A DNA stretch of 64,000 nucleotides from Blasia pusilla. Lineage: Eukaryota. Positions 9,162 through 57,421 of the stretch are shown here, piece by piece; the stretch's first letter is position 1; every line of letters begins with the position of its first letter. A program made the position numbers and the translations under genes. The stretch spans positions 620,001 to 684,000 of the forward strand of contig CM114271.1 of the NCBI GenBank assembly GCA_050084515.1, read 5' to 3'. The notes below the pieces were generated by a model. The model made no database searches. It saw nothing but the letters and a program-made list of their open reading frames with translations, and had not been told where the DNA came from.

Positions 9162-9281
<120 letters not shown>

Positions 9282-20772: not shown

Positions 20773-21721
20773 CTCGCTCATCGGCGTTGGGCTCCACCAA
20801 CCTTTGTACCTGGTCATTCCAAACCAAGCCAGGTCCGGCCTCCTTGAATGCATAGGAAGCGAGAAAACTCACCAATATGGAAAAGCCCGCTCATGGCATG
20901 CCAATCCTGTTGACCACACTCAACGGCGGTTGATCATCGCGCCTCACTGCTTGTGATCGACGGCCCAGATCCAATATAGAATCCACCAACAAATCGGATG
21001 GACACTCCACTCTTGCATAAGCCCTGCGCAATATCTCATGTGGTATCAAGTTGATCCACCAAAGATACGGATAGTGCACTCTAGAATCTACACTCGCCGC
21101 ATCTAACAACACTGCCGGGCCAATCCATGCGCGCACCTGATGTGCACTCGTCACCACGCGGGACCTCGAATCGCCCAAAGTTGGCACATTCTCCAAAATG
21201 TGTGCCGGAGAACAAGGCTGATGCTCTTGTAAATGTCGCAAGATCTGCCTCATCTTCCAAAATAACCTGGACCGAGTGTCAGCTAACCCGCTACCTCGTC
21301 CAACACTCGATTGGCCTTGACACGGCCAACCAACAATGACCAAGTCTATGGTCCCTACCCTCTCCAAGTCCTGCGCCCCCAACAATAAAATGTCCCTCGG
21401 TAGGGAACTCTGGTAACCTTGAATGACGGGCGCAGACAACAAGTCGGGAAAACGGAGGCGTAACAGCGCCACATGGTGAAGTGAAGCGTGGCTCGCAATA
21501 TCATCAATCTCCACATATAGGTAATGTTGCACGCACACTCTAGCGTGCAAAACAACAGCGAACCCAGTGCTGATCCCTCCAAAGAGATCCAACACCTGAA
21601 TACCCTCCTCTGGGATGCACCACACAATCGGGGTGGTGTCCAAAGGGGTCATAGCAACACTCCTACCTACCTGGAGCTCCTCTGACCCATCACACTCTCT
21701 AGTGCAAGTGTCTCGCTCCAT
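20773..21721 (-). pseudogene. Retrotransposon-encoded DNMT3-like C5 cytosine methyltransferase domain
   Basis: ORF 20891-21721 has motif I VLDLFGGISTG, motif II YLYVEID, motif IV DLVIVGWPCQGQS, motif VI HILENV and a degenerate motif VIII LDAASVDSRVHYPYLWWINL. It continues after a frameshift (LVSFLASYAFKEAGPGLVW...EPNADER) to a breakpoint at 20773; the C-terminal motif X is missing. Confidence 0.92.
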
Positions 21722-21750
21722 GCGGTTTGCACATGGTCAATGGCTAAGCG

Positions 21751-22400
21751 TCAAAGCTCCTCAGTCGAGCCCCAAAGCGGCACCTCTCCTCCACGAACTA
21801 ATGCGGCTACCATGACACTCCTCTCCATAAAAATGTCAGGAATGGGAGTATTCTCTGCATGGACATTTCCCTCAATCAAATCACTAGGCCAAGTGATGAC
21901 ACTACTAAATGCTGCTAAGGTCGCCATCTCTCCTGGCCCTCGCTTGATCACTGCACTTGTGAATCGAATGGGTAATGAGCTAAGGTGCCCATCACCTGAC
22001 TGCCATCCTGGTCTGTTGGACGCTGACTCCTCCCAATAATCCAGGGAAAACACCATGGAGTTTAACACTGCTCCACCAACCAAGACGTCGTAGGACTCTA
22101 CTTCAGTCACCATGCCTTGGCTCGTACCACGGACTTATTTGGAGGATGTCCCTAGCGAATTCTCACCAAGACCTCCTGTCGGGTGATATACTGTATGGTA
22201 CTCGCTCCATCCAAGGAAGTTTGTATCCAGAATGGACAATGCTCCACATCGGCTCTTGTCAAGCCCAATCCTCTGAATGACGCTTTCCCAAACATTAGGG
22301 GTTGCGCTTCTGAATCCAACAAGACGCGCTACGGACTAAAAGCTCTACCTCCGGGACTCACCAACTAGAAGACCTCTCCTTAGTTATCCAGCAACACAAC
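21751..22400 (-). pseudogene. Retropepsin-type aspartic protease region
   Basis: RVLLDSEAQPLMLG at ~22300-22330 (DSG changed to DSE), CPFWIQTSLDG, and YDVLVGGAVL in ORF 21751-22113. Confidence 0.75.
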
Positions 22401-24411
22401 ACGAGTAGAATCCATGGCACGTTCTATTGCAGGTCTAGCGGGCATCTCTGCCATCCTAGCAGCTGTAGCCTGCCATAAATCTGACGTGGACAGCCCGAGC
22501 ATCTGCTCCAAGGGCAGGTCCATCACCTCCTTTGCAATCACCTCTAAACGTGATGCAATAACTCCAACTCCACGCTCACATAGCGTAGCCGCCAGCCGAA
22601 AAACCTCGGCGGGCGTACCTCCCAACGTCATAACATCGGAAGCAAAAAATAAAGGAGCGCGGTACACAACGGTGGCCGCCCCCAACAATGTGCTTGACAC
22701 TTGCCTCTCTTGAGCATCAGCAATAGGAGTCGTCGCACTCGCTTCTCTCATCGCCCTCTGTGCCTGCACACCAACAACATCACCAACTCTCCAAGAACTC
22801 TTATCGGGACCCATCGATGGGGTCCTCATCGCCTCGGGAAACGTGAAAGACTGAGGAAGCCTAGTATGTTTCCTGGCTTCCCCTCGTTGTGGATCCAACT
22901 CTGTGGCTGCTCCACGCGTCATAAGTGTGGCGGCCTCCATCTGGGCAACCTCGCACATCCAACCAGGATCCTCCATATCTCTTGCTGCTCCATATGATGT
23001 TGATGCCATGGATCCGGCATCGGGTAATCTCAATGCCATAGTGGCAATCTGCTCCTGTAGCTGATGTATTTGAGCAGCCATCCTAGCCTCACGCTTGGCG
23101 TCTCCCTCAACGTGTCTAGGTGGTGGGACTCTACCTCCTCCACGGGCAGCTCCACCATCCTGTGGGGCAACTCCATCTCCTCTTCCTCCAACGGGACCAC
23201 CTGATGCACGATCTCTAGCCCACCCGGACCGGCTACTCGCTCTGGTGCCCTCTCTGGCCCTTGGTCCGGACGTAACTCAGGATGTAAACTGAAACACCTG
23301 GTGCGTGTATGACCATACCTTTGACAATAGTCATACTGATAACCTCGTGGTGCAGCACAATCTCCTCCTCCGTGCTGAGCACACGTCCATGACCCTGACG
23401 AGTGCAATCACGTTGATGATGAGCTCCATCACATGACCAACAAGTAATTGTAGGCGGCTGCTACTGAGCCGCATATGAGGGCGTAGGTCTCTGTGGCACA
23501 GCCTCCCGATATCCTCCTTGAGCTCGTAGTGCCATAGTCGACCTATCTCGGAGTCCACGTTGCTGCAGAGGTGGTGCAGACAATCGTGACTGCTCTCGCC
23601 CAGAACCCATGGTGGCTACGCTGTCCTCCGCCATGTTGCGCTCAATGTTCTCGATGGTCCTAAAAACATCTCTCAACGTAGGGGAGGTGTTCATAAGAAG
23701 CAGCCCTCCCGCACTAGTGTCCGCAGGATCCGATCGAGCATCGTGTACCATGATTGGATAGCGTGAGCCTCTGTCACCCCCTGAGTGATGTTGATCAACC
23801 GGCGCAAGCGAATGTAAGCCTCACGCAAACTCTCCCCCGAGCGCCTCTGGAAGTCGTGGATGCTCCACAACTTCTCCGTCCGTACCCCTAGTAGCTCGCC
23901 CTCAACTCAACGAAGAACTCAACCACGGGGTTGAACTTGGGACGAACCCGACTAGATGGTGCAACTACTCCAGTGCGGGTGACCCCTCCTAAACATCACT
24001 AGTGGAAGAGGAAGTAGGCTCTCTTGACTCCTCCTCCTCATCTCGGAACGGCTCCTTCCATGACACATAGTATGGGTCATAGTAGAGTCGCCATGCCTCA
24101 ATCTCCTTGGCATATCTGTGGGAGAACTCATGGTAATCGTCCTTGGGCGCCCCCTCTAAATGCTGGAACATACTGTTCCATGCTGTAAACGGATTCAACT
24201 CTCTAGAGTTCCTAGCCCGCTGTGAGTCACACCAACTCCTAAACTCCGCAATGAAGTCGTGTAGTTGTATAGTGCCTACAACACCCGAAAACCTACGCGG
24301 TCCTCTACCTCGGTCATCCATCTCGTACGCCCAAGTGGTAGGACCACTCAATATGTACGGTGGATTGCTAACACACTCCTCTATATGCTCCCCCTCATCT
24401 GAAGACGACAT
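22400..24411 (-). pseudogene. Gag-like region with CCHC zinc knuckle
   Basis: Fragmented ORFs: RRFSGVVGTIQLHDFIAEFRSWCD, IHDFQRRSGESLREAYIRLRRL (~23800-23860), knuckle YDYCQRYGHTRTRCFSLHPEL (~23270-23335). Confidence 0.8.
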
Positions 24412-24666
24412 AGAAGGAGATCGAGATGGTCTCTCACGTGGAGACCCTCAAAACCACGCACCATTCCGGGTAAACCCTCCAAAGCTACTCTAAGCTCCAC
24501 TACCTCGCCTCCCAAAATCTCGAAAGGACGTCGTGATGGACCTCATGCCCCTCTCACATGATCACTCTCAATCTCGCGAGTAATCCCTCAATCACTCAAA
24601 CTAAACATGCGGCACTCAATTTACACTCTCTCATTGAGACGTGTGTTGTACGGCAACAAACAACGT

Positions 24667-25930
24667 TGTCGTATAATAAAATCAGCCAGTGTGTAAACTC
24701 CTTCCACATTAAGTGTTAGATAGAGTTGTATTAATATTAAATAAATTAGCTTAGGAAAAAGAAATTCCCATGTTTAAACCTCTTTATGGTGCCTCTTTTA
24801 TGCGGGCCCAACTTTAGGAAAAGAGATGATTTTATAAAAGTAAAGTAGTGAGGTTGGTGCTTTAATGAAAAGCAAAAGTAGTCTTGGTTGATGGCTAGGT
24901 TAGTTGGGGTAATTTGGAAAATATCAAGTGGGTAAAAGAGGATATTTTGGAAGAGATAAGAAGAAATCTACTTGTGTCAAAATATGATTGGCTAAGCCTT
25001 GAGAGAAAGCCATGTGGTAGAAGATAAGATTAGCTCTATTTCGTACTCTTGTGGATCCCTTGTGAGTATATAAAGAGGAGGGACCTTCAAGGGTTCATCA
25101 TCTTCTATTTTACATCTTGAGTCTCTCGTGTCACTCTTGAGTGTATGACTTTGGGATTGCTTGCTTTTCCAATGAGAGTGGATCATCCCTCTTGGGAGAA
25201 TAACTTGACCATGATCTATTCTTCGAGAGGTTTCTAGAGTGTGGTGTGTGTGTGGAGATGAGAGGCTTGTCACCTTAGAGGAGTTTAGTTATACTAAAAT
25301 AGTGAATATTTTGGCTTGTTATTTTCCCAATGAGAGTGGATTATTCCTCTTGGAAGAATAATTCCGCCAAAGTCCATTCTTGAAGAGAGTAGATAATGTT
25401 TGTCAAGCATGGATAGGGGTGGAGCAAGAGTTGTGCTCGACTTTCCTTTCCTCAATCCATACCATGTAAAGGTACTCTTTGTAGATAGGCACTGGTTTAC
25501 TCGCTATTTAGTTTATGACTTTGGGGAGACACTCATGAACCAGGTCATGCAATCTCCAACTCCGGTGATTCTTCCTATCGTCATATACGGAAGAACATGG
25601 GATTATACTTTATATGTCCTTATATAGCAATCCATGGAAGTCAATAGGCCTACTCAAGTAGGGTTTAACATTAGTTGAACTATCTTCCTCGTATACAAGT
25701 GTAAAGTAGTTTATAAGGATTTTATAGTTAGGAATTTCGGGGTCTGATGTTACGAAGAAGTGATCGCCTCGGCACTTCCATTTGTGATACCTGTCGTGAG
25801 AGAATGGAGAGTATACTTTATAATTTTGTATTGAAAAAGGAGAACTTCTTAGAGAGATCACCTTGCATCGACCACGTGTGCCACAACTAGTAAGGTTGTC
25901 CTTACTCGAAGAAAGGCTCTTGACATGACA
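24667..25930. mobile_element. 1264-bp TGTCGT...ATGACA repeat, copy 2, nested in the DNMT element leader
   Basis: Flanked by ACGT on both sides (24663-24666 / 25931-25934); near-identical to 11063-12326. Confidence 0.88.
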
Positions 25931-28660
25931 ACGTGATGTGGCAAATCATTGATCTGTCATCTCATCGACAAACCATCCTCAACTCTGGACATCCACACAG
26001 GTCTATGTCCCCTAAACCCATAGATCATGAATGCTCCTAGCATCAGCACGAAGCTCAATATTCAAATAACTTCCCAATATCCGGAAATCCCTCACACGTT
26101 CAGGGTAAGAGACCAGAATGGATAACCTGACAATAATATCGATGTCGCTCCTCGGCAAGTGCAAATCTCGACCCCAACTCGGTCGTAAAGACAACTCCTC
26201 CAATCAGCAAGTCGTACTCCTCTCGTACTCATGCTGCTCAAACCTCCTCGATGTGCGGTGCAGGTCCAGCGGTCCGGTGCGGCAATGGCGGCACGGAACG
26301 GCTACAAATGGCACGGCACTCAAGAATGGGATGTGGCACTCGGCGGCATACCCTCCTCAATCAGAAATTCACACGCTCTGCTCCTTAGTGAAGGAGCGGC
26401 TACGTGATCGAGACGGTGCAGCCACGAGCGGCAGGGCGCAGCAATGGGCAACGCGTTGCGGCTACGGGCGTCACGGCACGATACTCGATCGTCGTTGAGC
26501 GGCTATCAATCATAACATAGCAGCATGAAATGAAAACTCAAACACCATAACCCCAGGTCATCTGCCATCACTGGTTGATGAGGAAAGTACGATGATGGTG
26601 GCGGCAAAAACAAAGTACGTGGTGGCGCAGCAAGTCACAGAATCAACGGTCGTGGTGGAAGACCCTCCATTCCATAATGGCGGCAACGGCAACCAAAGGG
26701 TGGACAACGGACGAACGCGGCTCTGAGCAATGGGCGGCAGCGGCCGACAGTGGACGGTGGACCGTTGATAGTGACGATTGATCGTTGATGGTGACGACCG
26801 ACCGTTGACGGTGATGATTGACCGTTGACCATTGATCGTTGACTAGTGATGGTGACAATTGACCATCGACGGTGGACCATTGACGGTGACTATGACGGCG
26901 GCGACTGCCACGGCGTGGTGGCTGGTTTAGGGTTTGAACAATTTAACCCTAAAAATCGCCTAGCAATGGTAGTTTTGTAAGATTGACCATAACTTTTTGC
27001 TCGCAACTCCAAATTGCGCACCATATGTTGCACAACATGCATAGCTTCATGATCTACAACAAAATCAAAAAATATTTTGAATTGAACATTCCAGTAAAAA
27101 TTGACGAGGACTATTATAAAGCCCAATGTCTCTTTCTCCTACACAAAATTCGGCAGTGCTTCCGTGCTGATTTCTCCCAACGAAAATGTAAAACCTGTAC
27201 AAATACAAATCAACAAGCTACATGGTGCTCCTGAGAGCATCGGCATGGGGCAACCCGCCCCCATACTCAATCCCTATCAAAAGTTGGGCAGCGCTTCCGC
27301 GCGCCATTCGTCCAGACGAAAAATCGGCAAAGGAAACATTACAAGTAAGCGGCTCTTGCTCCGGTGAGCACTCCCATGAACCGCTGAACGGGGAATATGG
27401 TCCCCAACCTGGAAAACCAATGAGTGACCAGCGAGCTCCGCCATGACACTCTCTCACTCACCCATTCTCTCTTTGTAAAATAAGATCCAATCTCTCTCAC
27501 AACACCATAGTTCTCACATGTGTGCACTCTCATATGTCTCTCTCACCGTCAAACCAAACCCACTCTCCTAATGAGAGGCTTGGGTTACACACACAAGGCA
27601 AGCAAGACCATAGCTCCACCGCCTCATGCCAAGAGGTTCAACAAAGAGAGAATGAGCTCTCAAGCTCTCTCTCCTTGAGATATACCCCTCCCCTCTCCCA
27701 AGCTCTCTCCATGGTAACCTATGCTCCCAAGTCACGTCATTGGCTCTTGACCTGATGTAGGAGGTCAAAGGTCACTTACTAAAAATAGAAAGTCGATCAT
27801 ATACTCAAAATGGTAATTACCAAAAATAAAAAGTCGATCATATACTCAAAATGGTACTTATCTAAAATAGAAAGTTCTTCAATATGGCTCTAAATGAGCC
27901 GAAATGAAGGGGAAACCTGCTCTCTTAGGTTTCCAATGGCCTTAGCAGGTCATCCTCGACCTATTGAGCCTGTCCTCCACTACTCACGAAGGCGATCTAC
28001 TAGATCTCACCGACATATCCTAAAAGACGTGACAACAGACTTATCTGTTTTTGTGCAACCATGATCAAGAAATAATCTCTTACTTACAAGAAGCCCTAAA
28101 GATTCATACGTGTTGCTTTCTTCATAGGCTCTTTATTGTTATTCTAGCTTGTAACACTCTTGCTCAACCGATCTTATTATGGGAATAATATTTGGTATAT
28201 TTTACCAATGACCTATTTTACCTACGATGTGAGATAGCCTTCCATTTCCAATTTTCTATTTATCTACATTCTCATTCCTACCACGTCTCTCATACTAAAT
28301 GTTGACACTTATTTGATTTTTTGTGATAATGTCATTTTAGAGAACAAGACTTCCAAACCTACCTTTGGATTTGATTACCATAAATAGCATATTATTAGAA
28401 GTGGACTACCATCTACAACTTTACAAGATCAAGGAAAAAGATTGTCAAACTTTCCAGATTTGCCTCAACCCACTTTCCATACACACACTACTATGCCAAC
28501 ACATTTAGAAGAAATAAGGCTTCTAAACAATCAAGACAAATTGTTGGAAAGAGTTATAGTTGGAGAGTCAAAATTTAATAATGGCCATGGTGTGGTTTGG
28601 GATGCTCTACATGAGGAGATAGAAAATATTCTTTAGAATGCTCCGCCATCACCAAAATTA

Positions 28661-42078: not shown

Positions 42079-42777
42079 CAAGATTGCACGGAAATTGACA
42101 AGTCCGTACATGGGATGGACATGTCCATGCAGATGCCGAGCCCGCACCTGAGTCCACACGAAGCCCGCCGTGTAGACCCGGTGTGATGGATAAGGTTGCA
42201 TGTGGACAAAGTCCGTATCCGTGGACATGTCCATGTCCGTGGACTTATGTGCGTCCTATGGAAGGACTTGTCCGTATGGGCCCCATCTTTCCCTTCTTTC
42301 TCATTCCCCTTACTTGCCTTCGTGTTCCATACTCCTCCATTTCTTCCTCCCTCCACCTCCACCTCCACTCCCTCCTCCCTCATTGCTCCTCTCATCCTTG
42401 CCTTGCCTTCCATCATGGACTAAAAGTGTGGATCCCACCTCTTGGAACCCATGTCCGTGGACATGTCCAGGCTTGCCCGTCCTAAGGAAGGACTTGTCCA
42501 TTTTTGTGCAACAATGGTGATGGAGCCCTTACCCGTTGCATGGCCCACCATGACCTACAACAGGCCCGTAGGGTGGGCTCAGTCCCTCGCAAGGCCCGCC
42601 CAATTGGGGCCAAGTCTGCCCTGTAGGCCTCGTTGGGAGCCTATCGCGGACTCTGTCAGCCTGGGTCTATGCGGCGGGTTCAAGTGCGGGCCGCAGGTAC
42701 CCGGGCCCGTACGAACATGTCCGTCCATGGAACAGACGTAAATCCGCAGACACAGACTTTGCATGTGTGCAACCTTA
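42079..42777. mobile_element. hAT-type MITE containing a nested MITE of the same TIR family (42191-42516)
   Basis: Outer TSD GCTATTTT / GCCATTTT; inner TSD GTGATGGA is perfect. Confidence 0.88.
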
Positions 42778-44616
42778 GCCATTTTATTAGTTGAGACTTG
42801 GAGAGGATCATATGTCAAGAGGAGAGGTGTTTGAAAATAAGAAGGCTCCCTCCAATAATTATATAGATGGAAATGAAAATACCATCAATTTCTTAAAAAT
42901 TATATTTATAAAGTCTAAAAATAGATTTCTAAACAAGTAATTTTGGAAACGTGCATCTTAAAATCTAAAATTGGGTTTGGCTCAACGGGTTTAATCTTGG
43001 GTGGAGAAACGGCATAATTATGTTAGACCATCTCCTAACATGTAGATAAATGTGGGCTTTCAGGTAATATTGATTTGTGTACTCAGTTGTAAATAAAACT
43101 TAAATGGATCCATTTGGATGCAAAAACTTAAACAAGAAGTGATAGTGGTGAATTTTAGGTCATTTTTCAAGAGCTAGGAGGCCAAACTTGAATCCATACT
43201 CTCCTTTTTTTGTGTGATGCAAATTTATAATTAGCGTGAGTGGTAGTGAGTGCTTCTAATGGACCAATACGCACAAAATTGCAATTAATTATGGCCCTTA
43301 CAAGCACTCGATGTTATGTTTTCTCTTTCACTTGAGGCACAACGGACTTTGATCCCAATTGAAGGTGCAATATTCTAAATCATGTGTGAATGGAAGCGCT
43401 TTGGAATTCCATGTGATGAGTGAAACTTCACAGTAGAAATCCAAATTTCTCAAAAATCTAATGAATGTGAATAGAGATTTTAAATTTTAAGAAAAATTGT
43501 AATTGTTGTACTTTTTGGGGAAAATTTCCCAATTCTAATATTGTAGCATTTCATAAAATTTTGTAATTTTTATGGAAGTTAGTAATCATTTTTAAGCTAG
43601 CTAAACTTGATACAATTGAGCACTTGCAAAACATTTTAGAATAGTCCATAATAAATTAAAAGATCTTCTTCTTCATTTTTAGGAATTTATTGTAAAGATA
43701 ATGAATCACTAAAAATCAAAAATTGAGGAAGAGAAGGATCCAAGGACTTTTTATCACCAAATCGATCATAAAGCTCATTTTGGAATTGTTTGCTATCCAC
43801 AAAAATTGCATATATATTCCAACATCACTTGTCAACATGTTATCTTTTTCATATACACACACCAATTCCAATATTTTATATACCCACTTTTCAACTATTA
43901 AGCCAAACTCAAACAGATTTTTGAGACCACAAACAATACAATTTAAACGTATACCAAAACACAACGTTTCATGGATACTTGTGAGTTCAAAAATTTTTGG
44001 AGACACCAAAGTTAATGTGTGTCGTTAATATACTTAGAATGTAACTCCTAATAACAAGTTATATGAAATATACCATATACCGTACTAATTTACATGTTCC
44101 ACGGGGAGGAGAAAAGTTTCAAGCTCCTTCTCTTGGGATTCGCAAGCATATGGGTTTGGCAAAATTGTGGGAGCCCAAATATAGAAGTAAAGGAATTGAT
44201 CCAACATAGATCATTTGTTGGTTATGGAACTTATCACATCATAGTTAGTCGATAGTTAGAGTTCTATCATGTTCACATCGCTCGCAACAATGTAGGGTGT
44301 TAGTAGGATATTTGAATACAAATATCCTACTATAAATATCCTAGAAATAGCTACAAATTTGAATTGATTGGTCAAGTAAAGTTAGTCATAGCTTCGTTAC
44401 ATCCAAGGTTTGGCAAAAAACCTTAGGCAAAATTTGTAATTTTCTAGAAAAAAAATTTAGCCGCAGACTAGAGTCAATAGAAACCAAAGGTACCTTGGCT
44501 ATATTCTAGGCACCAAATTTGTGCCAAAAATGGCACCATAGGTTTGCTAATTGGGCATCAAAGGTACGGCGGTGCCCTAGGAATGGCCCGTTGGGTGTCA
44601 AAGGTACACTAGAAAT

Positions 44617-45162
44617 GAAGGTTGCATGAAAAAAAACTTGTCCGTCCATGGGACAAACATGCCTAGACAAGCTCAGACATTCTCTGCATGGGTTCTTTTC
44701 ATACCTCCGTTGCCCATGCAGACTCAAGATGTGGGAATAGGTACGGGTTTGGATTAAGGGAATTGGGCACGGATCGAATGAGTGTGCACGCTGTGAGCGC
44801 GCGCACTTGGCCGGTAGGGCCCCACACAAGAAGGCCCAAGGCCCGCCTTGCACGGGTCATCTGCCAACTTCATTGCTCACATGGCCAACTTCACTCTTGA
44901 ATTTACGCGTACGTAATATCAAGCTATTGAAGATCGTAGCTGCAATGAGCCTTACGTGGGCTTGCCGTGGGCCTTGCACAAGCTTAGGACAAGCCAGGGA
45001 AGGGCTCATAGCCCACATAACCAATCGATCCCTAATCGCCTCCCCTAATCTGAGCCTATACCCATGCCCACGGGGGCTACTAGGGTACCAAAGAACCCCG
45101 ATGGGAGACTTGTGGGACATCTCCGTCCCATGGACGGATAAGACTATTTCCATGCAACCATG
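44617..45162. mobile_element. hAT-type MITE, same TIR family
   Basis: AAGGTTGCATG...CATGCAACCATG with subterminal GTCCGTCCATGGGAC; no TSD recognised. Confidence 0.7.
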
Positions 45163-45463
45163 ACGCCATGGTGGAGAGATTATTTTGGATTTAAATGTTC
45201 TTATTTGATTGGTATATGGTTATAATGAAATCATTCGAGAAATCTACTATCAAACTTGGTGCTTGAATTCGAGTTCTTCACATACAAACTTCTTATCTTG
45301 ATTCTGCCCTACCTTGTGATTCTTGTTGCAGCCAACTAGATTAAAATCATGTTCAAAATCCTTTGGAAGAGGATGATTATCATCCTTAGATCACCATCTT
45401 GTAAGTAATTATTAAACTCAATTTCCCTTCACCCTCATTTATTGGCAACATTGGTTTCAAGTA

Positions 45464-46548
45464 TATAGTGCGCGTACACATCACTAGTCATATCTACATA
45501 ACACACAACACTCATCTTTCCAACACACAGGTAGATCCACATATAAATGAAATACATTCATGCATGTGCACCAAGACCACACAATAAAATTGAAGTGAAA
45601 ATGGCTCACATGGCCAACTTCACTCTTGAATTTACACGTGATATCAAACCATATATATCCACCCTCCGCTGTGAGGGAATCCGACTCTAGCATCCTAGTT
45701 CCTACCAAACACTAAGCAAGAGAGGTATTCCAATGGCTCAACATGAGAAAGATGGATTGCGGAAGCCCTCTCTTCCTCTCTTATACCCTTGGGAAGAGGC
45801 AAAAGATCTTCCCCCAAAAATAGCCCTCCAAATTGTAACTTGAGTGCACAAGTTATCGGGTGACCCTTGACTCAATCAATGGGTCACTTTGTTAAAAATT
45901 GTTAAGAGGGAAATTTTCATAAAAAATGATCCCCATGCAATGGACTTGTTGCCAATCTCATCCAACACGTCAGGACAAAGTTACGCCCAAAAATCCTACT
46001 CACCCTCTATTTTGTCAATAAAGTAGAACTCTATCCGCTACATAAGATGCAAGGTTGCACACGGACAAAGTCTGTGTCCACGAAAATGTCCATGTCTGTT
46101 GACTTATGTTCGTCCTAGGGATGGACATGTCCTCGAGGGCTCAAGTACTCGCGGCCCGCACTCTAGCCCACCGTGAGCCCCCCGCGTAGACCTAGGCTCA
46201 TCAAGCGTGCACCCGTATTGTGGCCCGCGTGCAACATGAATTAGGCTATTAGCATGTGGTAGGCTTGCATGGCGGGTTGGGTCCTAATTGGAAGGGCTCA
46301 AGCCTGTATAGGGCCTTAAAACCCTAAACCCTAAGCCCGCCCAACGGAAGCCCTACCTACCCCGTGGGGTCTTGTTGCGGGCTCGTATAGGTTGCACGTG
46401 GGCCACAAATGGGTGTTGGCTCAGCCAACCTGGGTCTACACGACGGGCTTAGCAACAAGCTCAAATACGGGCCGTGGATATCCGATCGGCATGTCCGTCC
46501 CATAGACAATTTTTTTCCGTTTTCGTGCAACCTTGCTAAAATAGGACA
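45464..46548 (-). mobile_element. Short non-coding derivative of the DNMT retroelement family (~590 bp plus a nested MITE at 46050-46535)
   Basis: Left end TATAGTGCGC matches TGTCGTGCGC; right end AAGATG[MITE]GGACA matches AAGATGTGACA; perfect 4-bp TSD AGTA. Confidence 0.75.
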
Positions 46549-47820
46549 AGTACTTCTTCTTCAAGTAGGTTTATTTGTCAAACAAGCCACTCCTCTTCTA
46601 AATATTTTGTTCTGTACTTCTCATGAGGTACAATGATGCTTTTGTATAAATTATTGTTGGCGTCTCAATATAACTAAGATATGAAAATTGTTATGGGCAT
46701 ATACATCGCTAGTCACGTCTACGCAACTTGCAACATTGATCTTCCCAACACGTAGATAAATCCACACATAAATGAAATATACTCATACATATATACCAAG
46801 ATTACGTTATTCCCCCCCCCCCCCCTAATTGGCAGTTGGGTCCTCCTAATGCCTCATACTAGCCATCACATCTACCTGGCATGATCTACTATCCTATACA
46901 CATCTAGCATCATCAATGCTCTCATACCCGCAATATCTTCCAATACATGCTTGCCCTGGATTCCATTTCATCTATCTCTACCTCGAGATATATTTCATCT
47001 TGCAACATTGCAACTAACCTCCGTGTTGATCCTTACGAAGAGATCTAACACTCTCACATCTTCCTTTGGATGTTGCCTCACAATAGGTGTGGTATCCAAG
47101 AATATGAAGTCTCCACTCCAAGAGCATGACCATCACCTCATCTATTACAAGAAAAAAAGCATGACTCCATGTCTACCTCATTGGCCCTCATGAGCTCGTC
47201 TACACTTCTCTACAAGTCAACGCTTGTAACCACTGATGATGACGAGGTCTCATTACCATCGGAAGAGAAACCCATCTTGGCATGTCTCTCCACAGGACTA
47301 TCCTCTATTGGGACGTCCTCTCCATGAGTGCTCCTCTCCAACAACTCCCTCACCAACTACTCAGTCCCCATGAATACTCCCAATTTGGTTATGGTATCAC
47401 CTCGTAGACCACCACTACATCCTCCAAATCGCAAAAGTACGTAAATGGTCATCCATCTATCACCTGGTCGCCATCCTAGCCGATAAGCAACCATTCCATT
47501 CCAAAATTGAGGATTAAACCAACGGGGTATAATACTGTAATCCCTACCAACGTATCATACAACTTTGTTGGTATTGTTATTGTAGGAGAGCATACCATCA
47601 CACTATCTGATGCATGCTTCAAGTCTCACAACTAGCTCTTGCAAGTCATGTATTGTGTGGACAACCCATCCTCAATAAAGGTCTGTATCTAAAAGGGACA
47701 AGGCTCAATGTTGCCTTCCCATAATCCCAACCCCAAACACGTCATCTTCCCTACGAGCTTCCCTACTATAAGGGGTTTCATTCCCAAGTCAAGTCAGACG
47801 CCTTACGGATGATACACTCT

Positions 47821-48991
47821 TGTCGTGCGCAAACACATCGCTACACAGTCCATATTTTTGGTCATATCCACACTATACAACATTGATCTTCCCAATATAG
47901 AGATACATCCACTCATATACAAAAATGAACTCATGCATGTACATTAAGATCACACAAGGTACCCCGAAGTTGGCAATTAGGTCTCCCTAACTCCTTAGTA
48001 TATATCACACATATCTGACATGACCTACTATCCTATACACATCTAGGATATAACCATCATCCCATAGAGATTGCACCAAGAGGGAAGGTCAAATACGATA
48101 TATGCCATTCTCTAGAACAACTATCACACATCAACATGGTACATGGCTGCACCTATTGTAGGTCCACACAACATACATCTCAAGCCCATAGGCACCACTG
48201 CCAAGCTTGGATCCACTATCCCATCCATATTTGGAAGATGACAAGGCACATAGTTGCATGCATGATCCTTCCGAACCATACTATCTTGTCCTTCCAACAC
48301 GAGGACTCCGGTCAGTAACACCTTGCGAACACGCAAAAGCATGCACCCTACAATGACATATAGGGTCGTGGGTGTTGAAGATCTTTCTTCTCTAAAATTT
48401 GAGTACAAATAGCTCACATAGCGAAATCCAAATCTATATTGGCATATTGAGCCACATCCACCCTCCTCTATGAGGAAGTCCAGACACTAGCACACGCAAA
48501 AGCATGTGCCATATAATTACATCTAGGGTCGTGGGTGCTAAGGATCTTTCTTATGTAAAATCTCAATAAAAATGGCTCACATGGTGAGAGCTACTCTTGA
48601 ATATATATTGGCGTATTGAGCCACATCAACCCTCCTCTATGAGAGAGTTTGGATACTAGCACCCAAGTTCCTTCTACACACAAAGCAAGAGAGGTGCTCC
48701 TAAGGCTCAACGTAAGAAATATGGCTTGAGAAAGCCATATCTCCCTCCCTTATAGCCTTCAATGATAACGTGCATGCACAAGTTACCAGGTGACCCTTCA
48801 CTCAATCAACAAGTTACTTGTCTGAAAAAGACCAATATACAAAATTGCTCAAAAAAAACTTTTCCAACGCAATGGACCTGCCATCAACCTCATTTCAACA
48901 CTTGAGGATGAAGTTACACCCAAACAACCCGCTGATCCTCTATGTTGTCAATATGGTAGAACTCTATTTGTTGGCTTACTAAGATGTGACA
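47821..48991 (-). mobile_element. 1.17-kb internally deleted derivative retaining the polyprotein tail and PHD finger, nested in the protease of copy 2
   Basis: Termini TGTCGTGCGC and AAGATGTGACA. The host protease sequence is contiguous across it, with 4 extra nt that may be a decayed TSD. Confidence 0.75.
48033..48345 (-). pseudogene. Polyprotein C-terminus (probable integrase tail) with PHD finger
   Basis: LRVRKVLLTGVLVLEGQD...DHACNYVPCHLPNMDG..DP...CMLCG...(frameshift)TMLMCDSCSREWHISYLTFPLGAISMG*WLYPRCV-stop, a decayed C4HC3 pattern. Confidence 0.78.
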
Positions 48992-51900
48992 CCATACATA
49001 GGGTACAAACCAAGCGGAACACCTTGCTTTGGTTTTTCAACAACACCACATCTAGTGTCACCTTGGCTCACTCTATCAAGTCAAGTTAGCATATCTACCA
49101 ACTTTGCCAATGAAACCTACCATGATTGAGTGGAGACATCCCGAGCACCTACTCTGAGGGCATGTCCACCACCTTCTCAATGACTACCTCCGAACACAAA
49201 GTATTAACCTCTCCATGCTCACACAATGTGACAGCCAATTGGAACACCTCTGCTCATTCAACTCCCAATGTTGCCAAGTCCAACCATATAGGAAAACAAT
49301 GGAGCCTAACTCACCCTAATGGCCATCTCTGATAAAGTAGTTGATACTAACTCCACCTGAGCTGACATAGAAGTCGCCTCTCCAACTCTTTGTGACGTGG
49401 ACACACTTGTTACACTTGTGGGTACCGTTGGTCATCTAGCTAAGCACCATCATTAATGGTGTATGTCATGCCTCCAACAATGTAAAAGACAATGGAACCC
49501 TATCCTATTTCCCATTTCTCCCCTTGTGTGGGTCTATCTCAATCCCAACTCTCTATGTCTTGGTCACTCCCATAGCACCTCAAGTCACCACAACAATAGC
49601 CTCTACATGAGCCGCACTATAGATAAATCTCAAACTAGCGTAATCCTCCTCCCTTGTATCTTCATACGACGTAGAGGTTGGAGCTAAATTAGCTACTCTT
49701 GGCTTTGTGTCAATCATTGTTTGGGTCATTTTCATGTCAAAAATCCTCATCTCCAATTCATTGATACAAGCGAGGACCGCTATGTAGAGTGCACCATCAC
49801 CGTCATCTCCTGTGATTGATGGTGGAACTCCACCATCACGGTTATCAGCTCCTCACCCTCCACCAACTCTCTCATCCTTAGGCCCTCAACCTACCTCTAG
49901 ACGTATCTCTTGGCAAAGATTAAAACACCTATCCCTATTATGATCATATTGGTAACAACAATCAAACTCAAGCTATAGTGTGGCCATTCTATATGGCTCT
50001 TGAACAATGAGAGGCGTCCTCAATCCTCTACCATGATGTGGGCAATCCCTTTGCCTATGGGATCCACCGCACATCCAACAAGCCAAAATTGATCCTTGCT
50101 AGCCAATGTATGTCGACACAAGTTGTTGTCTCATGTGCTCACAATACCGGCCCTGCTCTGGGGGCACACCGGCCTACTCTCGTGGCATTGGTGCACGTTG
50201 GGGCACTCATGCATCCATTGAATCTTATGGGAATCCTGCTCCTCACTCATTTTGAGTTCAATCTACTAAGACAATTGAATAACCCCTTCAATATGGGATT
50301 CAAGCTTCAATATACATGTGAGGCAAAATTCCATCCAAAACTCTCCTTCACACCTCTCAATCTAGAACCTTGTACCAATACTAAATTGCATCTACCTTAG
50401 TCACTCCATGATGGCAATGATCAATCACTGTTTGCATCAAACGCCTCCTATAGACTCTCACCTAATCTCAATTGAAACTCCCATAGACTATTCAGCTTGT
50501 TAGTTTGCACGCCTTGGTAGCTCCTCCCCAACTCTCGGAGTAACTCCACCATAGGACTGAAACTAGGCAACCCTCTACCACCTTAGGTCTTTATCATCTC
50601 ACAACCATTACTTTTGTTATCTCCATCTAGTCCTTGGGCTAATGATGTGGATCTAACTGCTCTCACTACCCCATCATATGTCTCATAACTGCTAGTGGAC
50701 ACATATCTTGGAGCCTAATACACCTTCCAAGCATCAATCTCTAGTGCGTGGAAAGACCAAACTCACAATAATCATCTATTGAAAATCCCTCTAAATGCTA
50801 GAATAAACCCTTTCACACCATGAAAGGATTGAAGGGCATAGGAAATTGTATATCCTAGAAATCACACCTTATGTCAAAGTCTTGGATGAAGTCATCAAGA
50901 TTAAGGGTGCCTACTGCATTCGAGAAATGACGCATGCCCCTGTGGCTGATATTGTCCATCTCTCCCCACGTAATAATGTCTCTGTCTGCGATCTTATCAC
51001 TAGATCCTCTATCTCGTGATGATGATCCAAACACGAATGATAGTCGAGCTGGTTCCTCACTTGAAATCCCTCAATAGCTTACTTTGGCCCGTTCCTTGTA
51101 ATACCACTATCACTGCTCAAACCATATACCCTGTTCTTCTTAACCTTGGAAGAACATCGTGATTGCAACCCTACCTCACATGCATACTCACACACCCAAG
51201 CATTTGGACTTACTTAGAGTCTTCCGCATCTTTACTAGCTCACCTATGTCAATGCTAGTCCCATGATGACACATAATTGTCCTCATGCGCACTCAATCAC
51301 TTGAGCCCACACCGAGCCTCTCGTACTAACTCACCTAAACTATCAACAACCTTGGATTATACACACGACCCCCACTAGGACAACAACCCTATACCCACAA
51401 ACACGCTACATACACAAAGAGTCTACACTCAACACCATCGCTACACCCATCTAGAACTAGCTCTATCCAATACCCAACACCTCCAATGACACAAGATAAG
51501 TGTGGGAAAGGGACTTGAATGGATAATCTGAACATGCACGCAATCACTCTATCGCCTAATCAATATTGAGTCTTCCATGTGGTGCAGTAACCTTTTTGGC
51601 ACGACAATCTCATCGAACCTTTTGTGAACCGATGCGGACTACCCGTCGGTATTGGTGCATGTGTATTTATCTCTAGCCCTCCGTTGCAAACTCTCGGCGT
51701 GAATAACCCATCTCAATACTAGCAAGTCAAAATTATGTCAACGATTTGCAATGAGGGGCAAATCTCGCCACAAATCGCAATATGCACTTGGAAACACCAA
51801 GTCGTAAAAATCATGGAGAAACCTCTCCAATCAACTGCCTATCCTCTTGGAGGTTAGGTGGTCAATCCTATTATGTTGGATTTCTTGACCACGTAGCTAC

Positions 51901-54900
51901 AATATCATGTCTCATTCCATTGTCATGACCATATGGATTATGTTGTAAAGTATAGTGTGCTAGTAGAGGCCATACCTTATGTAGGGCCGTAGTGTCTAGG
52001 TAGAGATGCAATTTCATACATAGGGTTGGGGGTTACTCAGTTGAGGGTGACTTTCCCAGTAGGGCCCGCTCTTAGGTTGGAGGATATAGTGTGGAGTGCA
52101 CTCAAAGAACAGTTAGTTCTTTGAGTTGAGCATGTTGCGTTGGGAGTTAGCCTTGGTAGTGAGTAGAGCTCTTGGTTATGATGGTTCCCGCAAGCTTCGA
52201 CCTAGATTCTTCCATCAGGGAGTGGGTTTGGCTTGATTGTATGTGATTCTATACGTGTTTTATGACAGTAGGTCTTTCACGGATTTCACTCAAAGAATTG
52301 GAGTAGATCAATGGTAGCTTCGATCGTGGATCAGTAGGATCTGGTTAGGGCTGATTGTGTACTCATCCATGGATATTCGTGGCTTGTGGCCTATGTTGGA
52401 GGTGGAAATATGATGCATGGTTGGTTGGGAAAGAAGCGCCATTTTGAGAGCTTTTCAACGCCCTTTAGATCGCCATATTTTGTCAAGGGAGTTGGAAGTT
52501 ATCAAGGATTGAAGATTCTGGTTCGTGTTCGACGGTTTTCTGATATGGAGAGCTTGGAGTGCGAAAGCTCTGTTGAAGTTCATCCAGATCAGGTGAGAGG
52601 TTCCTATTGCTATGTGTATTGTGATCTCATGTGAAGCTATCTTCTTGAGTGTGTGGAGTGTTGCGGATTTCTGTGTGCATGAATCTGGGCGGAAGCGCTG
52701 TCGGATTTGCGATTCTGGAGGTGTATGGATAGCAAGTTTGTCTGATGTTTAGCTCGGAGTACACATCTCAATTGTAGCTGATTTTTTGTGGAGAGATAGC
52801 TATGGTGGTCAATTGAATTCAAGTTGAAATAGATTCAATTTTGGTCTAGGATTTGTGAAGTACTTGTTGATCAAAATTTTGTGGACTAGCTCAAGGTCTG
52901 GCTATGGTGGACAGCAGATCGGAGGGGCTGGTTGGTTGGTGACTCGTTCGTTGTTGGAGACGCCTATCCCATTGGGGGCGCCTTGGTTGGGCCTCTCTCC
53001 ATAGCGAAGCATGGCGAACGAGGCATGTCTCGAGCATTTTGAGGCTTCGAGGCAACTCGTGGTAGCTCGGGACGAGTGGGCGTGAGAAGCGGAGGAAGGA
53101 GCAAGGAGCAAGCAAGCAAGCTTGCTTGCTTGGGCATAAGGCAGTTTTTGCAAGAATTGTGAGTTGAGTGTTGCATAACTAGTCACCCATCTTTGGGCTA
53201 TTCTGCCTGGAAGACACTTAACTGCTAAGTTCTTAACTATGCCAATGTAGACACTAGTGTAGCTCATTTGGTGCTGTTCGGAGATGTGCTAGGCGCTTTA
53301 TGCATCTTGGGTTTTTGGTTGATGGACCTCTAGCGCATAGTACGGTGTAGCCTCTCCATGCAGGTGATATTTTTAGGTGTTGCAAGCCCGACTAGCACGT
53401 CATCGACCCGTGGCGGAGTAGCTATTGCATTAGAATTTTGTGGTGGGTTCTGGCGATTCAGGGAGCGCCACGTTTGGTGGATTGTGTTACCTTGATTTCT
53501 ATTTGCGATTGAAGGGTTGTTGTTGGACTTCCTATGTTTGGATCCCCTCCATCGTTGCTTCTTGCTTGCGCGCCCATTATTAGGGTTGACGCTGATTTCC
53601 AAAGTAGTTTTACTCATGTGTGCTACCGGTAGTGAGGTTGGAGTGATGACCAATAGACCGTGGGAGGCTTCTTGTGGTGATGACATGTTAGGTTGCCTAC
53701 ACCCATAGCTAGTAGAGCTAGAATAGTACGGCGACATCGACGTCACTTGGTTACTTTGTGGTTGTGATTTGGTGGTGGTGCGGCATCGGCGTTGGTCATC
53801 ACATAACTGTCTGGTGGTCTGGTTGGGGACCGTGGTGTAGATAGTGGTGGTTTTACATGGAGTGGATTAAGGTATCGGCTACGTTTTCCACTTCCGAAAA
53901 GGTGGCGACGGAAGTCAAAGAATCAACAAACGTCGTGGAAGACCCTCCACTTCGTAATGGCGGCAATGGCAACCAAAGGGTGGACAACGGACGGTGGGCC
54001 ATTGACGGTAACGATTGACCGTTGATGGTGACGGTGACCGTTGACCATTGACCAATGATGGTGATGGTTGACCATTGACGGTGACTATGACGGTGGCGGC
54101 TGGTTTAGGGTTTGAACAATTTAACCCTAAAAATTACCTAACAATGGAAGTTTTGCAAGATTGACCATAACTTTTTGCTCGCAACTCCAAATTATACATT
54201 GTTTGTTGCATAGCATGCACAACTTCACAATCTACGATAATGTTTAAAAATATTTAGAATCAAACATTCCAATAAGAATTGATGGGGATTGTTGTAAAGC
54301 CCAATGTCTCTTTCTCCTACACAAAATTTGGCAGCGCTTCCGTCCTGATTTCTCCCAAAAAAATGTAAAACCTATAAAAATACAAATCAACAAGCTACAT
54401 GGTGCTCCTGAGAGCACCAGCATGGGGCAATCCGCCCCCATAATCAATCCCTATACAAAATTGGGCAGCGCTCCCGCGCGCCACTCTTCCACACAAAAAA
54501 TCGGCAAATGGAAACAACAATCAAAGCAGCCCTTGCTCTGATGAGCACTCCCATGAGCCTCTGAATGGGGAACACGGTCCCCAACCTGCAAAAACAGCGA
54601 GTGACCAGCGAGCTCCCCCATAAAGCTCTCTCACTCTCTCATTCTCTCTTTGTAAAGTAAGATCCAATCTCTCTCTACACCATCTCACACCATAGCTCTC
54701 AAAGGTGTGCACTCTCTCTCATGTCAAACCAAACCCACCCTTCTAATGGGAGGATTGGGTTACACTCATAAGGCAAGGGACCATAGCTCCGCCGCCTTAT
54801 GCCAAGAGATTCAACAAAGAGAGAATGAGCTCTCAAGCTCTCTCTCTCTCTCCTTGAGATATACTCCTTCCCTCTCCCAAGCTCTCTCCATGGTAACCTA

Positions 54901-55168
54901 TGCTCCCAAGTCACCTCCTTGACTCTTGACCTGATGTAGGAGGTCAAGGTCCACTTACAAAAAATATAAATTTGATCACATACTCAAAATGGTACTTACC
55001 TAAAATAGTAAGTTCCTCAATATGGCTCCAAATGAGCCGAAACGAAAGGGAAACCTGCTCTCTTTCAAGTTTTCCGGGGCCTCAGCAGGTCATCTTCAAC
55101 CTACTGAGCCTGTCCTCCACTACTCACAAAAGCTCTCTACTAGATCTCACCGATCTATCCCTAGAGAC

Positions 55169-55170
<2 letters not shown>

Positions 55171-55230
<60 letters not shown>

Positions 55231-55338
55231 GTGAGTGAGTGAGTGAGTGAGTGAGTGAGTGAGTGAGTGAGTGAGTGAGTGAGTGAGTGAGTGAGTGAGT
55301 GAGTGAGTGAGTGAGTGAGTGAGTGTGAATGAATGAAT
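55171..55338. repeat. Compound microsatellite (GA)n(GTGA)n(GAAT)n
   Basis: Seen directly; abuts the LINE 3' end. Confidence 0.97.
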
Positions 55339-57421
55339 AGATTTATTGTCCACGGGGATCCCATAGGGCTATGGGACTTAGTTTTGAGACTTAACAACAA
55401 TTTTGAAGAGAAAGAGCAAGCACCAACAAGGGCCTAAGGGGTCCTCTGAGCCAAGTGAGTGTCTTTGGTCTTCACACAACTATGCAAGAATTTAGCAATC
55501 TTAATTTGATTCTGCTAGCCATGAATGCGAGGACCTTGGGAGCCCGATGATCAAAGAGATCCGGGAAGTCAAGCCTAATGTAATTGTGAAAGGTGCAGTC
55601 AAAGAGGTAGTGATGTTCATCATCAATGAGCCCCAAGTTGCAAAATCTACATAATCTATCCTCCCTTTTCTTCTGTGAGAATTTTCCTTTCTCAATCTCA
55701 AGGTCAGTAGAGCCACATCTGAATCTCGCTAATGTATGACGTAACTTAGTGGGAATGGGGGCAGTGATGTAAGAGGCTTGCTGCATGGATCTGCAACTGT
55801 TCATGAGGGTGTGGTAGCGCCTCATTCTTTCACCATTTTTGTGAGATGAATTCCCCTTGCTTTCCCACAGACGCTGATGTCGGCCCCGATTGATGGCAAT
55901 GTAATTGATGTGTAATTGTTCAGCAAGGTCCTGGTGGGTGGCCGTAGGCAGGTCGCCGATGGATATTCCCCATTTCATGAGCCACTTCGTGCAGTCATAG
56001 TACCAATTTTTAGCCCCAAGAATGGCACTACGTTTTGAAACCACATAGGCCGTGGAGGATAGACGATTGGGATAGTCCTCGCAGACATCCTCGAGGTGTT
56101 GGAGAAATGTGATCAAATTTTTAACAACATGGATCTCCATTGATACCTCCCCAAACTCAGCCCATAGAATGTCATGGGGAGTGGTTTTCTTAATGCCTAG
56201 ACTCTAATGTATGAAGAGTTTCTGGGCAACCTCAAGGCCCTGGGGCCAAGCCTTGGGGCTAGGGCCCCACACCTTAGATGCATAGAGTGTGGCTGGGATC
56301 ACCAGAGCTTTGAAGAGATGGAGTTTTGTGAAATATGCTAGAGTTCCATTCTTCTGCAATTGGATTGTAGCGGGTGTAGACCCCTCAAGCTTGCATTGAT
56401 CTTGTTGCGACTCCCATTGGTTCTCCATTGGTTGTTGGGTTTGAGTTGCACCTCAAGTATATGTACTAACCCACAATCTTAATGGTCTCCCTTCTCAGTC
56501 CCTGGCTGAAGGTGAAAGTGTGTGACCGCTGTGCCGTAGGGAGCTGTGATCCACAGATGATTATCTTCATTTTCAGCAAGTTGACTTCCATGCCCGATTT
56601 GTTGCATAAGCTTGATAGTGCATTCAGGTAAAGTTGGAGCCCATGTGCCGTTCTAGACATCATAACTATATCATGTGCGTACAACAGCAGGGGGATGAGG
56701 CAATGTGCTAGCTCTGGCGGATCTCCATTCACTCCAAAGAGCACCTCTTCAAGTTCATCAATGTAGAGCCCAAAAAATGTAGGTGAGAGGGGGCATCCTT
56801 GTTTGACTCCGGTGTTGGAAGATAAAGTTTCAGATCTGCCCCTCTTAGTGGCAATTTGTGCAAACACCTGAGCATATAAGACCTTGATTGTTGTAAGTTA
56901 TTGTGGTGGGACACCCAACTCTTCAAGTCGTTTCCAAAGAAGTGGCCTTGGGACTGTGTCAAATGCCCTCTTGAAGTCTACAAAACAGCAGAACAATTTA
57001 CCCAACTTGTGACCAATTCTCAACTTGAAAGTTTCTTCAATCCGTGCTCTGAGTGTGAGAAGGTCATCCAAGGTGCTATGTGAGTGTCAAAAACTTGCTT
57101 GTCCTCTGGCACGCACCTTCTTTTCTTCAACCCAGTCGCTGATTTTCCTTTCCAGCAGTAGCTCGTACAACTTGGCCATGAGGGAGCTCACCATGATTGT
57201 CCTGTAGTTGGATGGTACATTGGGTCTCCAGCCTTGAAGAGTGGGTAGATCGTATTCATTTGCCATTATGGTGGGAAGCCTTGTTGAGCTGTAGTATTGA
57301 ACATTCTGGTAAGGGTTGGGCCAATTGCCTCACTACGAATTTGAACATCTGAGCCTGGCACCCTAGGACATCCTCCAGTTTGTTATGTAGCCTTTTGAGG
57401 CATGATGTGACATCTTCAATG
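55227..57421 (-). mobile_element. 5'-truncated non-LTR retrotransposon (RTEX/RTE-like LINE)
   Basis: RT motifs NYRTIMVSS, FVDFKRAFDTV, GVKQGCPLSPTFFGLYIDEL, LLYAHDIV. C-terminal LARFRCGS.DLEIEKG...RLCRFC...DDEHHYLFDC zinc finger. AATAAA followed by a (TTCA)/(CTCA)n tail. Frameshifted. Confidence 0.9.

Follow-up and report, generated by a model that had tools for sequence, protein, structure and literature searches.

A relic integrase-PHD module in Blasia pusilla DNA and a Ty3/gypsy clade in which PHD finger and DNMT3-like domain occur together

We found that the minus strand of a 64,000-nucleotide window of Blasia pusilla DNA (the whole stretch analyzed; positions 620,001 to 684,000 of contig CM114271.1) encodes, at 48486-48036, the C-terminal tail of an integrase followed by a PHD finger. 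The module is a fossil that cannot work, having acquired a frameshift and a stop and lost two zinc ligands. The best explanation, which we consider probable, is that it represents the 3' end of a dead Ty3/gypsy pol gene from a green-plant clade with both a DNA methyltransferase (DNMT) and a PHD finger, and that in active members the finger would tether integrase to histone H3 unmethylated at lysine 4 (H3K4me0). The window copy is a pointer to this family, and it is the lineage that is worth study.

RESULTS

A decayed PHD finger follows an integrase tail

A sequence-only reading of the window had placed a decayed PHD finger at 48033-48345, at the end of a polyprotein and behind an integrase tail. 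The strings it quoted were found on the minus strand, where this interval covers the stop codon, the whole finger and about 55 codons of the tail. The tail relic (48181-48486), which in relatives forms a predicted SH3/Tudor-like beta-barrel, was recognized by homology (E 5e-23) and from the structural model of the relative P0033. It is overlapped by a tandem duplication (48329-48662) of two units of approximately 165 bp that are 79.5% identical, and unit 1 repeats the reading '...PTTLDV..LLRV'. The finger relic, of the C4HC3 type, occupies 48036-48180 and was identified by a subthreshold match to PF00628, by alignment and by tblastn with P0030-P0035 (42-50% identity). It opens with 'RCMLCGPT' at 48180-48157 and continues, past a +1 frame change, with 'VQPCTMLMCDSCSREWHISYLTFPLGAISMG*WLYPRCV' at 48152-48036. 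Read by frame, the first minus-strand frame gives '...LTGVLVLEGQDSMVRKDHACNYVPCHLPNMDGIVDPSLAVVPMGLRCMLCGPTIGAAMY' down to about 48140, and the second, past the shift, gives 'MLMCDSCSREWHISYLTFPLGAISMG*WLYPRCV' and then the stop. This TAG codon (48033-48035) ends the Pol frame three codons past the last PHD cysteine; the five aligned relatives stop 3-6 residues past the same cysteine.

The finger is damaged by one +1 frameshift near 48140 and by one in-frame TGA at a position that is Arg in all aligned relatives. Alignment with five intact relatives placed it in the C4HC3 register and showed that six of the eight zinc ligands are kept (C1, C2, C3, C4, H5 and C8), with Tyr at C6 and C7. Lacking the full set of eight, the window copy is a relic and not an intact finger, as the sequence-only reading had it. 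We built a read-through peptide, P0036, in which the frames were joined by reference to the relatives and X was placed at the frameshift and the TGA. The anticipated PF00628 match on such a corrected peptide was obtained over the whole model (positions 1-47; 18.0 bits, E 0.003), but it fell below the gathering score of 24, as did the 39-residue PHD piece alone (18.8 bits). Intact relatives score 32-50 bits; the low score of the window finger is due to its frameshift, its TGA and its two lost ligands.

When whole frames of the 44-58 kb region were scanned against Pfam, stops being written as X, the sole match was a LINE reverse transcriptase (RT); both the PHD finger and a DNMT remnant described below were missed, because long frames dilute weak domains. 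The integrase domains rve and H2C2 were not found in 44-58 kb, either upstream of the window tail in its frame or elsewhere. No integrase core, RT or long terminal repeat (LTR) was found beside the window finger. "Polyprotein end" is for this reason a correct description of the ancestor and not of the remaining copy.

Homology identifies the module

The 120-residue open reading frame at 48127-48486 on the minus strand was compared with 5.8 billion proteins and matched six longer ones, five of them with E values of 5.3e-23 to 5.8e-19 and 48-62% identity. Pfam analysis of these five best matches revealed a PHD finger in all five and rve as well in two (P0032 and P0034). Where the source of these nearest rve and PHD proteins is named, it is a liverwort (Calypogeia fissa) or a moss (Sphagnum fallax). 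Mapped back onto the window, the matched proteins cover 48483-48145 and 48137-48024, and tblastn of relatives gave 44-62% identity through tail and finger. In P0026, whose rve core lies at residues 1319-1412, residues 1515-1667 align to 48462-48039 (E 8e-18); this places the finger behind an integrase tail, as had been proposed. Positions 48375-48039 are aligned by up to 55 of 80 related loci at 66-71% nucleotide identity. The window copy is thus homologous over the whole finger to bona fide PHD proteins. Judged on this homology, tail and finger are not a chance pattern, and the identity of the module is settled.

An LTR-bounded copy encodes a DNMT3-like domain

The window also contains a second copy, copy A, at 11063-25934 on the minus strand, bounded by LTRs of 1268 bp (11063-12330 and 24667-25934) that are 95% identical. 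Copy A consists of gag, two CCHC knuckles, a protease and a DNMT open frame, and is without integrase and PHD finger. Its DNMT3-like domain spans 20774-21736 (open frame 20894-21736; PF00145, E 3.6e-10) and keeps motifs I (LFGGIS), IV (WPCQG, with PCQ) and VI (LENV, with ENV). All 29 of its PDB matches are DNMT3A, DNMT3B or DNMT3C (E about 3e-5). By these motifs and its nearest solved relatives, the frame is predicted to be a DNMT3-type cytosine methyltransferase. Its longer relatives are proteins of Marchantia, Calypogeia and Sphagnum (48-63% identity).

We also noted an RT fragment of the element itself at 20198-20772, inverted on the plus strand and abutting the DNMT end. The fragment matches residues 696-846 of P0008 and residues 1151-1275 of P0017 at 48-87% identity, and past it no further RT, RNase H (RH) or integrase (INT) was found in copy A. 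This arrangement suggests an inversion with deletion, or a template switch, within an element whose two LTRs remain 95% identical. A regular-expression search of 10-27 kb for RT, protease and zinc-knuckle motifs returned none; it was too narrow, the RT fragment having been found by tblastn.

Three partial copies surround the PHD finger

On the minus strand around the finger, three partial copies, B1, B2 and B3, lie head to tail. B1 begins with gag and a pre-protease part (48968-50992), with two CCHC knuckles near 50098-49889; this gag is homologous to that of DNMT-bearing Marchantia-type polyproteins. There follow a segment of about 300 bp (a', 48663-48967), the duplicated integrase tail, the finger, the stop and a 3' untranslated region of about 185 bp (47848-48032). 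Segment a' recurs at 45585-46034 and nowhere else in the window, and no protein or coding homology to it was found in the 80 loci. The end point of the 3' region recurs at 46712 and 45474, so that B1, B2 and B3 share one 3' stopping point.

B2 begins at once after the end of B1, with protease and post-protease sequence (47249-47865; protease at 47865-47494), in which 'LDLGMKPL' corresponds to LDSGAQPL. It retains a remnant of DNMT motif I ('VLDLFVRINT', 47010-47099) and, about 85 bp past it, a second copy of roughly the last 10 codons of the finger together with the stop and 3' region (46712-46926). The recurrence of the PHD end beside a DNMT remnant had been noted in the sequence-only reading, and it holds: 48066-47861 and 46926-46712 are 68.7% identical over 217 bp, and both PHD ends read P-R-C-V-stop-D-S-R-S-C-Q. 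The junction of DNMT remnant and PHD end in B2 is consistent with an internal deletion of approximately 4 kb. B3 (45474-46034) comprises segment a' and the end of the 3' region, with tail, finger and stop deleted. No LTRs were found for B1-B3, and no direct repeats flank 45.4-51 kb that could be LTRs or target site duplications.

The block 48967-47848 has flanks roughly collinear with copy A, and the coding stretch 'TGQVY.P.RVL' occurs in both. The block may be an insertion into one gag-PR-DNMT copy (PR, protease), or the end of a separate, internally deleted copy lying before a 5'-truncated one. Two separate copies, B1 and B2, are favored because about 15 bp of the upstream flank of the block in B1 are also present in B3.

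The observed/expected ratio of CpG is 0.39 in copy B, 0.54-0.56 in related loci and 0.71 in copy A, and the low value of copy B fits an old, methylated relic. The sense strand of the window at 46-52 kb has a GC skew of +0.23 to +0.28 (G rich and C poor), as have two related loci, L064 and L028. The excess of G over C was considered as a signature of decay and rejected, since it is a family trait that L064 and L028 also show.

A dispersed repeat family ('...HKSTDMD...TDF.VQP') is interleaved with the partial Gypsy copies in several orientations, at 42100-42800, 44500-45200, 46050-46600 and 19100-19950. One member directly precedes B3, and in copy A another lies behind a motif that resembles a 3' end, at about 19950. 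Elsewhere in the window, a LINE-type (non-LTR) reverse transcriptase is encoded on the minus strand at 56513-57212 (RVT_1, E 1.5e-21), with a 243-residue open frame downstream (55475-56203). A 1.2-kb dispersed repeat pair (26817-28032 and 54001-55172) is 84-86% identical, and two similar short-period microsatellite arrays (55163-55325 and 9160-9276) translate as THSL/SL repeats. A 254-residue open frame at 2767-3528 on the minus strand encodes an OB-fold 'tRNA_anti-codon' domain (PF01336; E 5.8e-8, 33 bits) and is probably a host-gene exon.

PHD finger and DNMT-like domain are inherited together

In order to place the window copies, metagenome contigs were scanned with P0030. This single scan gave 413 confirmed relatives, which marks the clade as abundant in bryophyte-like DNA; 80 loci were kept, and the window PHD peptide matches all 80. 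In seven full-length loci (L006, L016, L021, L028, L036, L043 and L064), gag-PR-DNMT is followed by RT-RH and then by INT-PHD, all on one strand. Among loci with at least 4.5 kb of upstream sequence, 22 of 30 have a DNMT on the same strand, 1.5-5 kb upstream and 51-59% identical to the window DNMT frame. It was not at the expected distance in the other eight (L007, L008, L012, L014, L033, L042, L057 and L073); in L008 the DNMT lies closer because RT-RH is deleted, and the upstream DNA of L012 is cut off within RT. Pfam analysis of the open pieces of L064 returned RVT_1, RNase H, H2C2, rve, PHD (34 bits) and DNMT (18 bits), and that of L059 returned DNMT (36 bits) and rve. An rve domain lies upstream of tail and finger in P0032, P0034, P0026 and L064. 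The LTRs of related loci are approximately 340 bp long and start about 280 bp past the stop.

A protein search with the tail and finger of P0026 listed 114 proteins, whose named sources include Haematococcus, Pleodorina, Volvox, Tetrabaena, Chlamydomonas eustigma, Chromochloris and Cymbomonas. A DNMT-like region was detected by phmmer in 84 of these 114 with the DNMT part of P0026 and in 78 with the window DNMT frame; precomputed Pfam annotation lists PF00145 for 23. Of the 30 proteins without a DNMT-like region, twelve are cellular proteins with a PHD finger, for the most part KDM5/JMJ demethylases. When 78 DNMT relatives were aligned, the catalytic Cys column was kept in at least 66 and the 'EN' of motif VI in at least 70. 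Motif IV of most algal-type members in this alignment reads W-E-C-Q-D, with Glu and not the canonical Pro before the catalytic Cys; W-P-C-Q-D occurs in 19 and W-C-W-H-D in three, including the Pleodorina protein P0035.

In the bryophyte type (P0008, P0013 and L006-L064) the homologous DNMT domain follows PR and precedes RT; in the algal type (P0026 and P0035) it follows RNase H and precedes integrase. By Pfam, P0008 and P0013 from bryophytes read DNMT-RT-RH, and the more distant P0026 reads RT-RH-DNMT-INT-PHD (P0024, P0025 and P0028 do so in part). The INT-PHD end is common to both types, so the differing position of the DNMT implies either a relocation of this domain inside the polyprotein or two captures of it. 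With a DNMT in 84 of the 114 proteins and 22 of the 30 loci, the PHD finger and the DNMT-like domain are co-inherited across the clade. The proposal that PHD and DNMT belong to one lineage is borne out by these counts, and the seven full-length loci show INT-PHD and DNMT in the same copies.

Directly downstream of the first element in L036, we observed a second and more divergent RH-INT-PHD copy (11074-12954) that is 46% identical to P0032; that source therefore harbors two or more sublineages with a PHD finger. All eight zinc ligands are kept in 44 of the 63 related loci that cover every ligand column. Pairwise dN/dS among 15 stop-free copies of tail and finger was about 0.75-0.79, with no sign of constraint, a value that is uninformative on constraint because copies decay neutrally after insertion and that is expected of dead copies.

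The finger resembles readers of the unmodified H3 tail

The nearest solved sequences to the finger are CHD4 PHD1/2, PHD1 of KDM5B and KDM5A, KMT2D, DPF2/3, PHF21A (BHC80), UHRF1 and AIRE, and the nearest cellular PHD fingers are of the KDM5/JMJ type. BHC80, KDM5 PHD1, CHD4 PHD2 and AIRE are readers of unmethylated H3K4. The model of P0033 (mean pLDDT 74) shows a small beta-barrel (strands at 90-140, pLDDT about 88-91) and then the PHD finger (80-90). The top Foldseek matches of the model were the Tudor-PHD cassettes of PHF1, MTF2 and UHRF1/2 (E 8e-7 to 7e-4, with a TM score of only about 0.2), followed by single PHD fingers at an rmsd of 1.0-1.8 A. The modelled finger superposes on the BHC80 PHD with an rmsd of 1.1 A over 49 columns (41% identity) and also on the PHD fingers of ORC1b, BAZ2A and UHRF1, whose entry titles name unmodified H3 peptides.

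Further inspection of 25 relatives revealed that an L-x-C-D strand and a P-x-G-x-W stretch are invariant or nearly so; in solved complexes these hold the H3 N terminus. Readers of H3K4me3 carry a cage residue two positions before the His, and the finger has no Trp there. The first loop, 'GSKGGATH', is without an acidic residue at the position where some H3K4me0 readers contact Lys4, so the specificity may differ. From sequence and modelled fold, the PHD most resembles readers of the unmodified H3 tail, such as BHC80, KDM5 PHD1, CHD4 and BAZ2A.

DISCUSSION

From the observed identity and homology of the module, the domain order of its relatives and the co-occurrence with DNMT, we propose that 48486-48033 on the minus strand was the 3' terminus of a pol gene from a Ty3/gypsy LTR retrotransposon, in which a beta-barrel integrase tail was followed by a PHD finger closing the polyprotein. 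The clade is a green-plant one, with liverworts and mosses as its nearest named relatives and chlorophyte algae as more distant ones. Intact members of the bryophyte type have the order gag-PR-DNMT3-like-RT-RH-INT-PHD, and those of the algal type RT-RH-DNMT-INT-PHD. The finger of active elements would tether integrase or the intasome to nucleosomes via the N-terminal tail of H3 unmethylated at K4, and new copies would land away from active promoters, much as with the integrase chromodomain of chromoviruses. A chromodomain is also listed in only 2 of about 100 transposon-like entries of the P0026 tail and PHD search. H3K4me0 tethering is favored by the C-terminal position on the integrase, the nearest PHD structures, the invariant strands and the missing Trp. 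The histone mark, a guess from likeness to solved PHD fingers, and the targeting role are inferred, as would be any coupling of chromatin reading with methylation.

The finger might instead, or in addition, work with the element's own DNMT3-like enzyme, reading H3K4me0 and directing or licensing methylation of new copies in the manner of an ADD domain. We regard this as doubtful. The DNMT is DNMT3-like in all 29 PDB matches, the two domains are co-inherited in 84 of 114 proteins, the finger is of the unmodified-H3-tail type, and the algal order DNMT-INT-PHD has no known domain between DNMT and integrase-PHD. In the bryophyte type, however, RT, RH and INT intervene, and putative protease cleavage would probably part the two domains; many members also carry Glu and not Pro before the catalytic Cys of an enzyme whose activity is predicted from sequence. 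That the finger serves another step of the life cycle, such as host-protein binding, nuclear import or reading of another histone mark, appears unlikely. In its favor, PHD fingers have partners of many kinds, the acidic residue with which some H3K4me0 readers contact Lys4 is missing from the loop, and published accounts of green-algal transposon PHDs leave their role open in the sections available (PMC9940879, PMC8557442). Yet the near invariance of L-x-C-D and P-x-G-x-W in 25 relatives and the location of the finger at the integrase C terminus argue against such a role, and for integrase tethering.

We also weighed whether PHD-bearing and DNMT-bearing elements are separate families whose fragments with similar 3' ends happen to lie side by side. 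B1 has a PHD finger and no DNMT, LTR-bounded copy A has a DNMT and no PHD finger, 30 of 114 module proteins have no DNMT-like region (12 of these being cellular), and 8 of 30 loci have no DNMT at the expected distance. Against this, seven full-length loci carry both domains in order on one strand, the gag of B1 is that of DNMT-bearing Marchantia-type proteins, and among the eight loci L008 has a closer DNMT and L012 is cut off upstream. Separate families are therefore largely refuted and highly improbable.

A bolder version of the one-lineage account, which we put forward only tentatively and hold to be rather unlikely, is that the chlorophyte-to-bryophyte Ty3/gypsy clade carries a writer-reader pair of a DNMT3-like enzyme and an H3K4me0-type PHD finger, mirroring animal DNMT3 with its ADD domain, and that its elements would seek out chromatin unmethylated at H3K4 and methylate their own new copies. 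The algal form DNMT-INT-PHD may be one mature protein. An opinion article states, in the portion available, that land plants "such as tracheophytes" lack transposon-encoded DNA methylases (PMC6338049); a writer-reader pair, if real, would contrary to that statement put transposon-encoded cytosine methylases in land plants. Chromatin tools on transposons reveal how mobile DNA negotiates host silencing, and because genetics and chromatin maps are available for Marchantia and other bryophytes like it, the benefit of writer and reader to a transposon becomes testable.

Green-algal transposon PHDs, a charophyte Gypsy-DNMT3 element and chromodomain targeting were each already known. The present data add that, throughout a broad clade of the green lineage, a PHD finger fused to integrase and a DNMT3-like domain accompany each other (84 of 114 proteins). 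In freely accessible articles and preprints, no account was found of DNMT and PHD in one Gypsy element, or of such an element in bryophytes or other land plants.

REM1, reportedly described by Perez-Alegre in 2005, is said to be a PHD-bearing transposon of Chlamydomonas. According to the accessible text of two studies, the PHD finger is a common accessory domain in Chlamydomonas transposons, and Gypsy-7a_cRei has one (PMC9940879, PMC8557442). Like the elements described here, REM1 and Gypsy-7a_cRei are placed in the green lineage, with a PHD finger accessory to Gypsy Gag-Pol that is proposed to limit harmful insertions. By description, they differ in that no DNMT is reported in the accessible text and that a figure legend puts the PHD before INT (PMC9940879). 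Fusions of PHD fingers and of chromodomains to transposons are surveyed in a preprint available in part (bioRxiv 10.1101/2021.11.30.470311).

For the DNMT, the closest described system is KnitGypsy-Dnmt3 of Klebsormidium nitens, in which a Gypsy element carries DNMT3 (de Mendoza et al. 2018, PMC5890265). As far as the available text describes it, it too is a Gypsy LTR retrotransposon of the streptophyte lineage with a DNMT3-type methyltransferase inside Pol, but it has DIRS-like repeats, whereas the relatives described here are found in land plants and their LTRs, of 340 bp, are ordinary ones; the two are compared by description (PMC5890265). Neither "PHD" nor "Marchantia" occurs in the accessible text of that article or in three of its supplements (PMC5890265). 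EpiLTRs are LTR retrotransposons with DAM, DNMT and chromodomain, as outlined in the accessible part of a preprint (bioRxiv 10.64898/2026.05.21.726589). They likewise combine a DNA methyltransferase with a chromatin-reader domain, in their case DAM and a DNMT sister to DNMT4 with a chromodomain, in contrast to the DNMT3-like domain and PHD finger found here (bioRxiv 10.64898/2026.05.21.726589).

Among cellular proteins, the H3K4me0 PHD fingers of BHC80/PHF21A, KDM5A/B (PHD1), CHD4 (PHD2), BAZ2A and AIRE resemble the relatives' finger in sequence and modelled fold, and the ADD domain of DNMT3 offers a parallel in that the relatives' PHD is also encoded together with a DNMT3-type enzyme. The relatives' finger differs from both in being a transposon domain fused to integrase, with no acidic Lys4-contact residue in its first loop and with predicted binding. 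Among transposons, the closest parallel for the proposed role is that of the chromoviruses MAGGY and Tf1, in which a chromodomain at the integrase C terminus steers insertion (Gao et al. 2008, as related in citing papers). Both fuse a histone reader to the C terminus of a Ty3/gypsy integrase past its beta-barrel, presumably for the choice of insertion sites; here, unlike in chromoviruses, the reader is a PHD finger and not a chromodomain, it likely recognizes unmodified H3 rather than H3K9me, and the lineage adds a DNMT.
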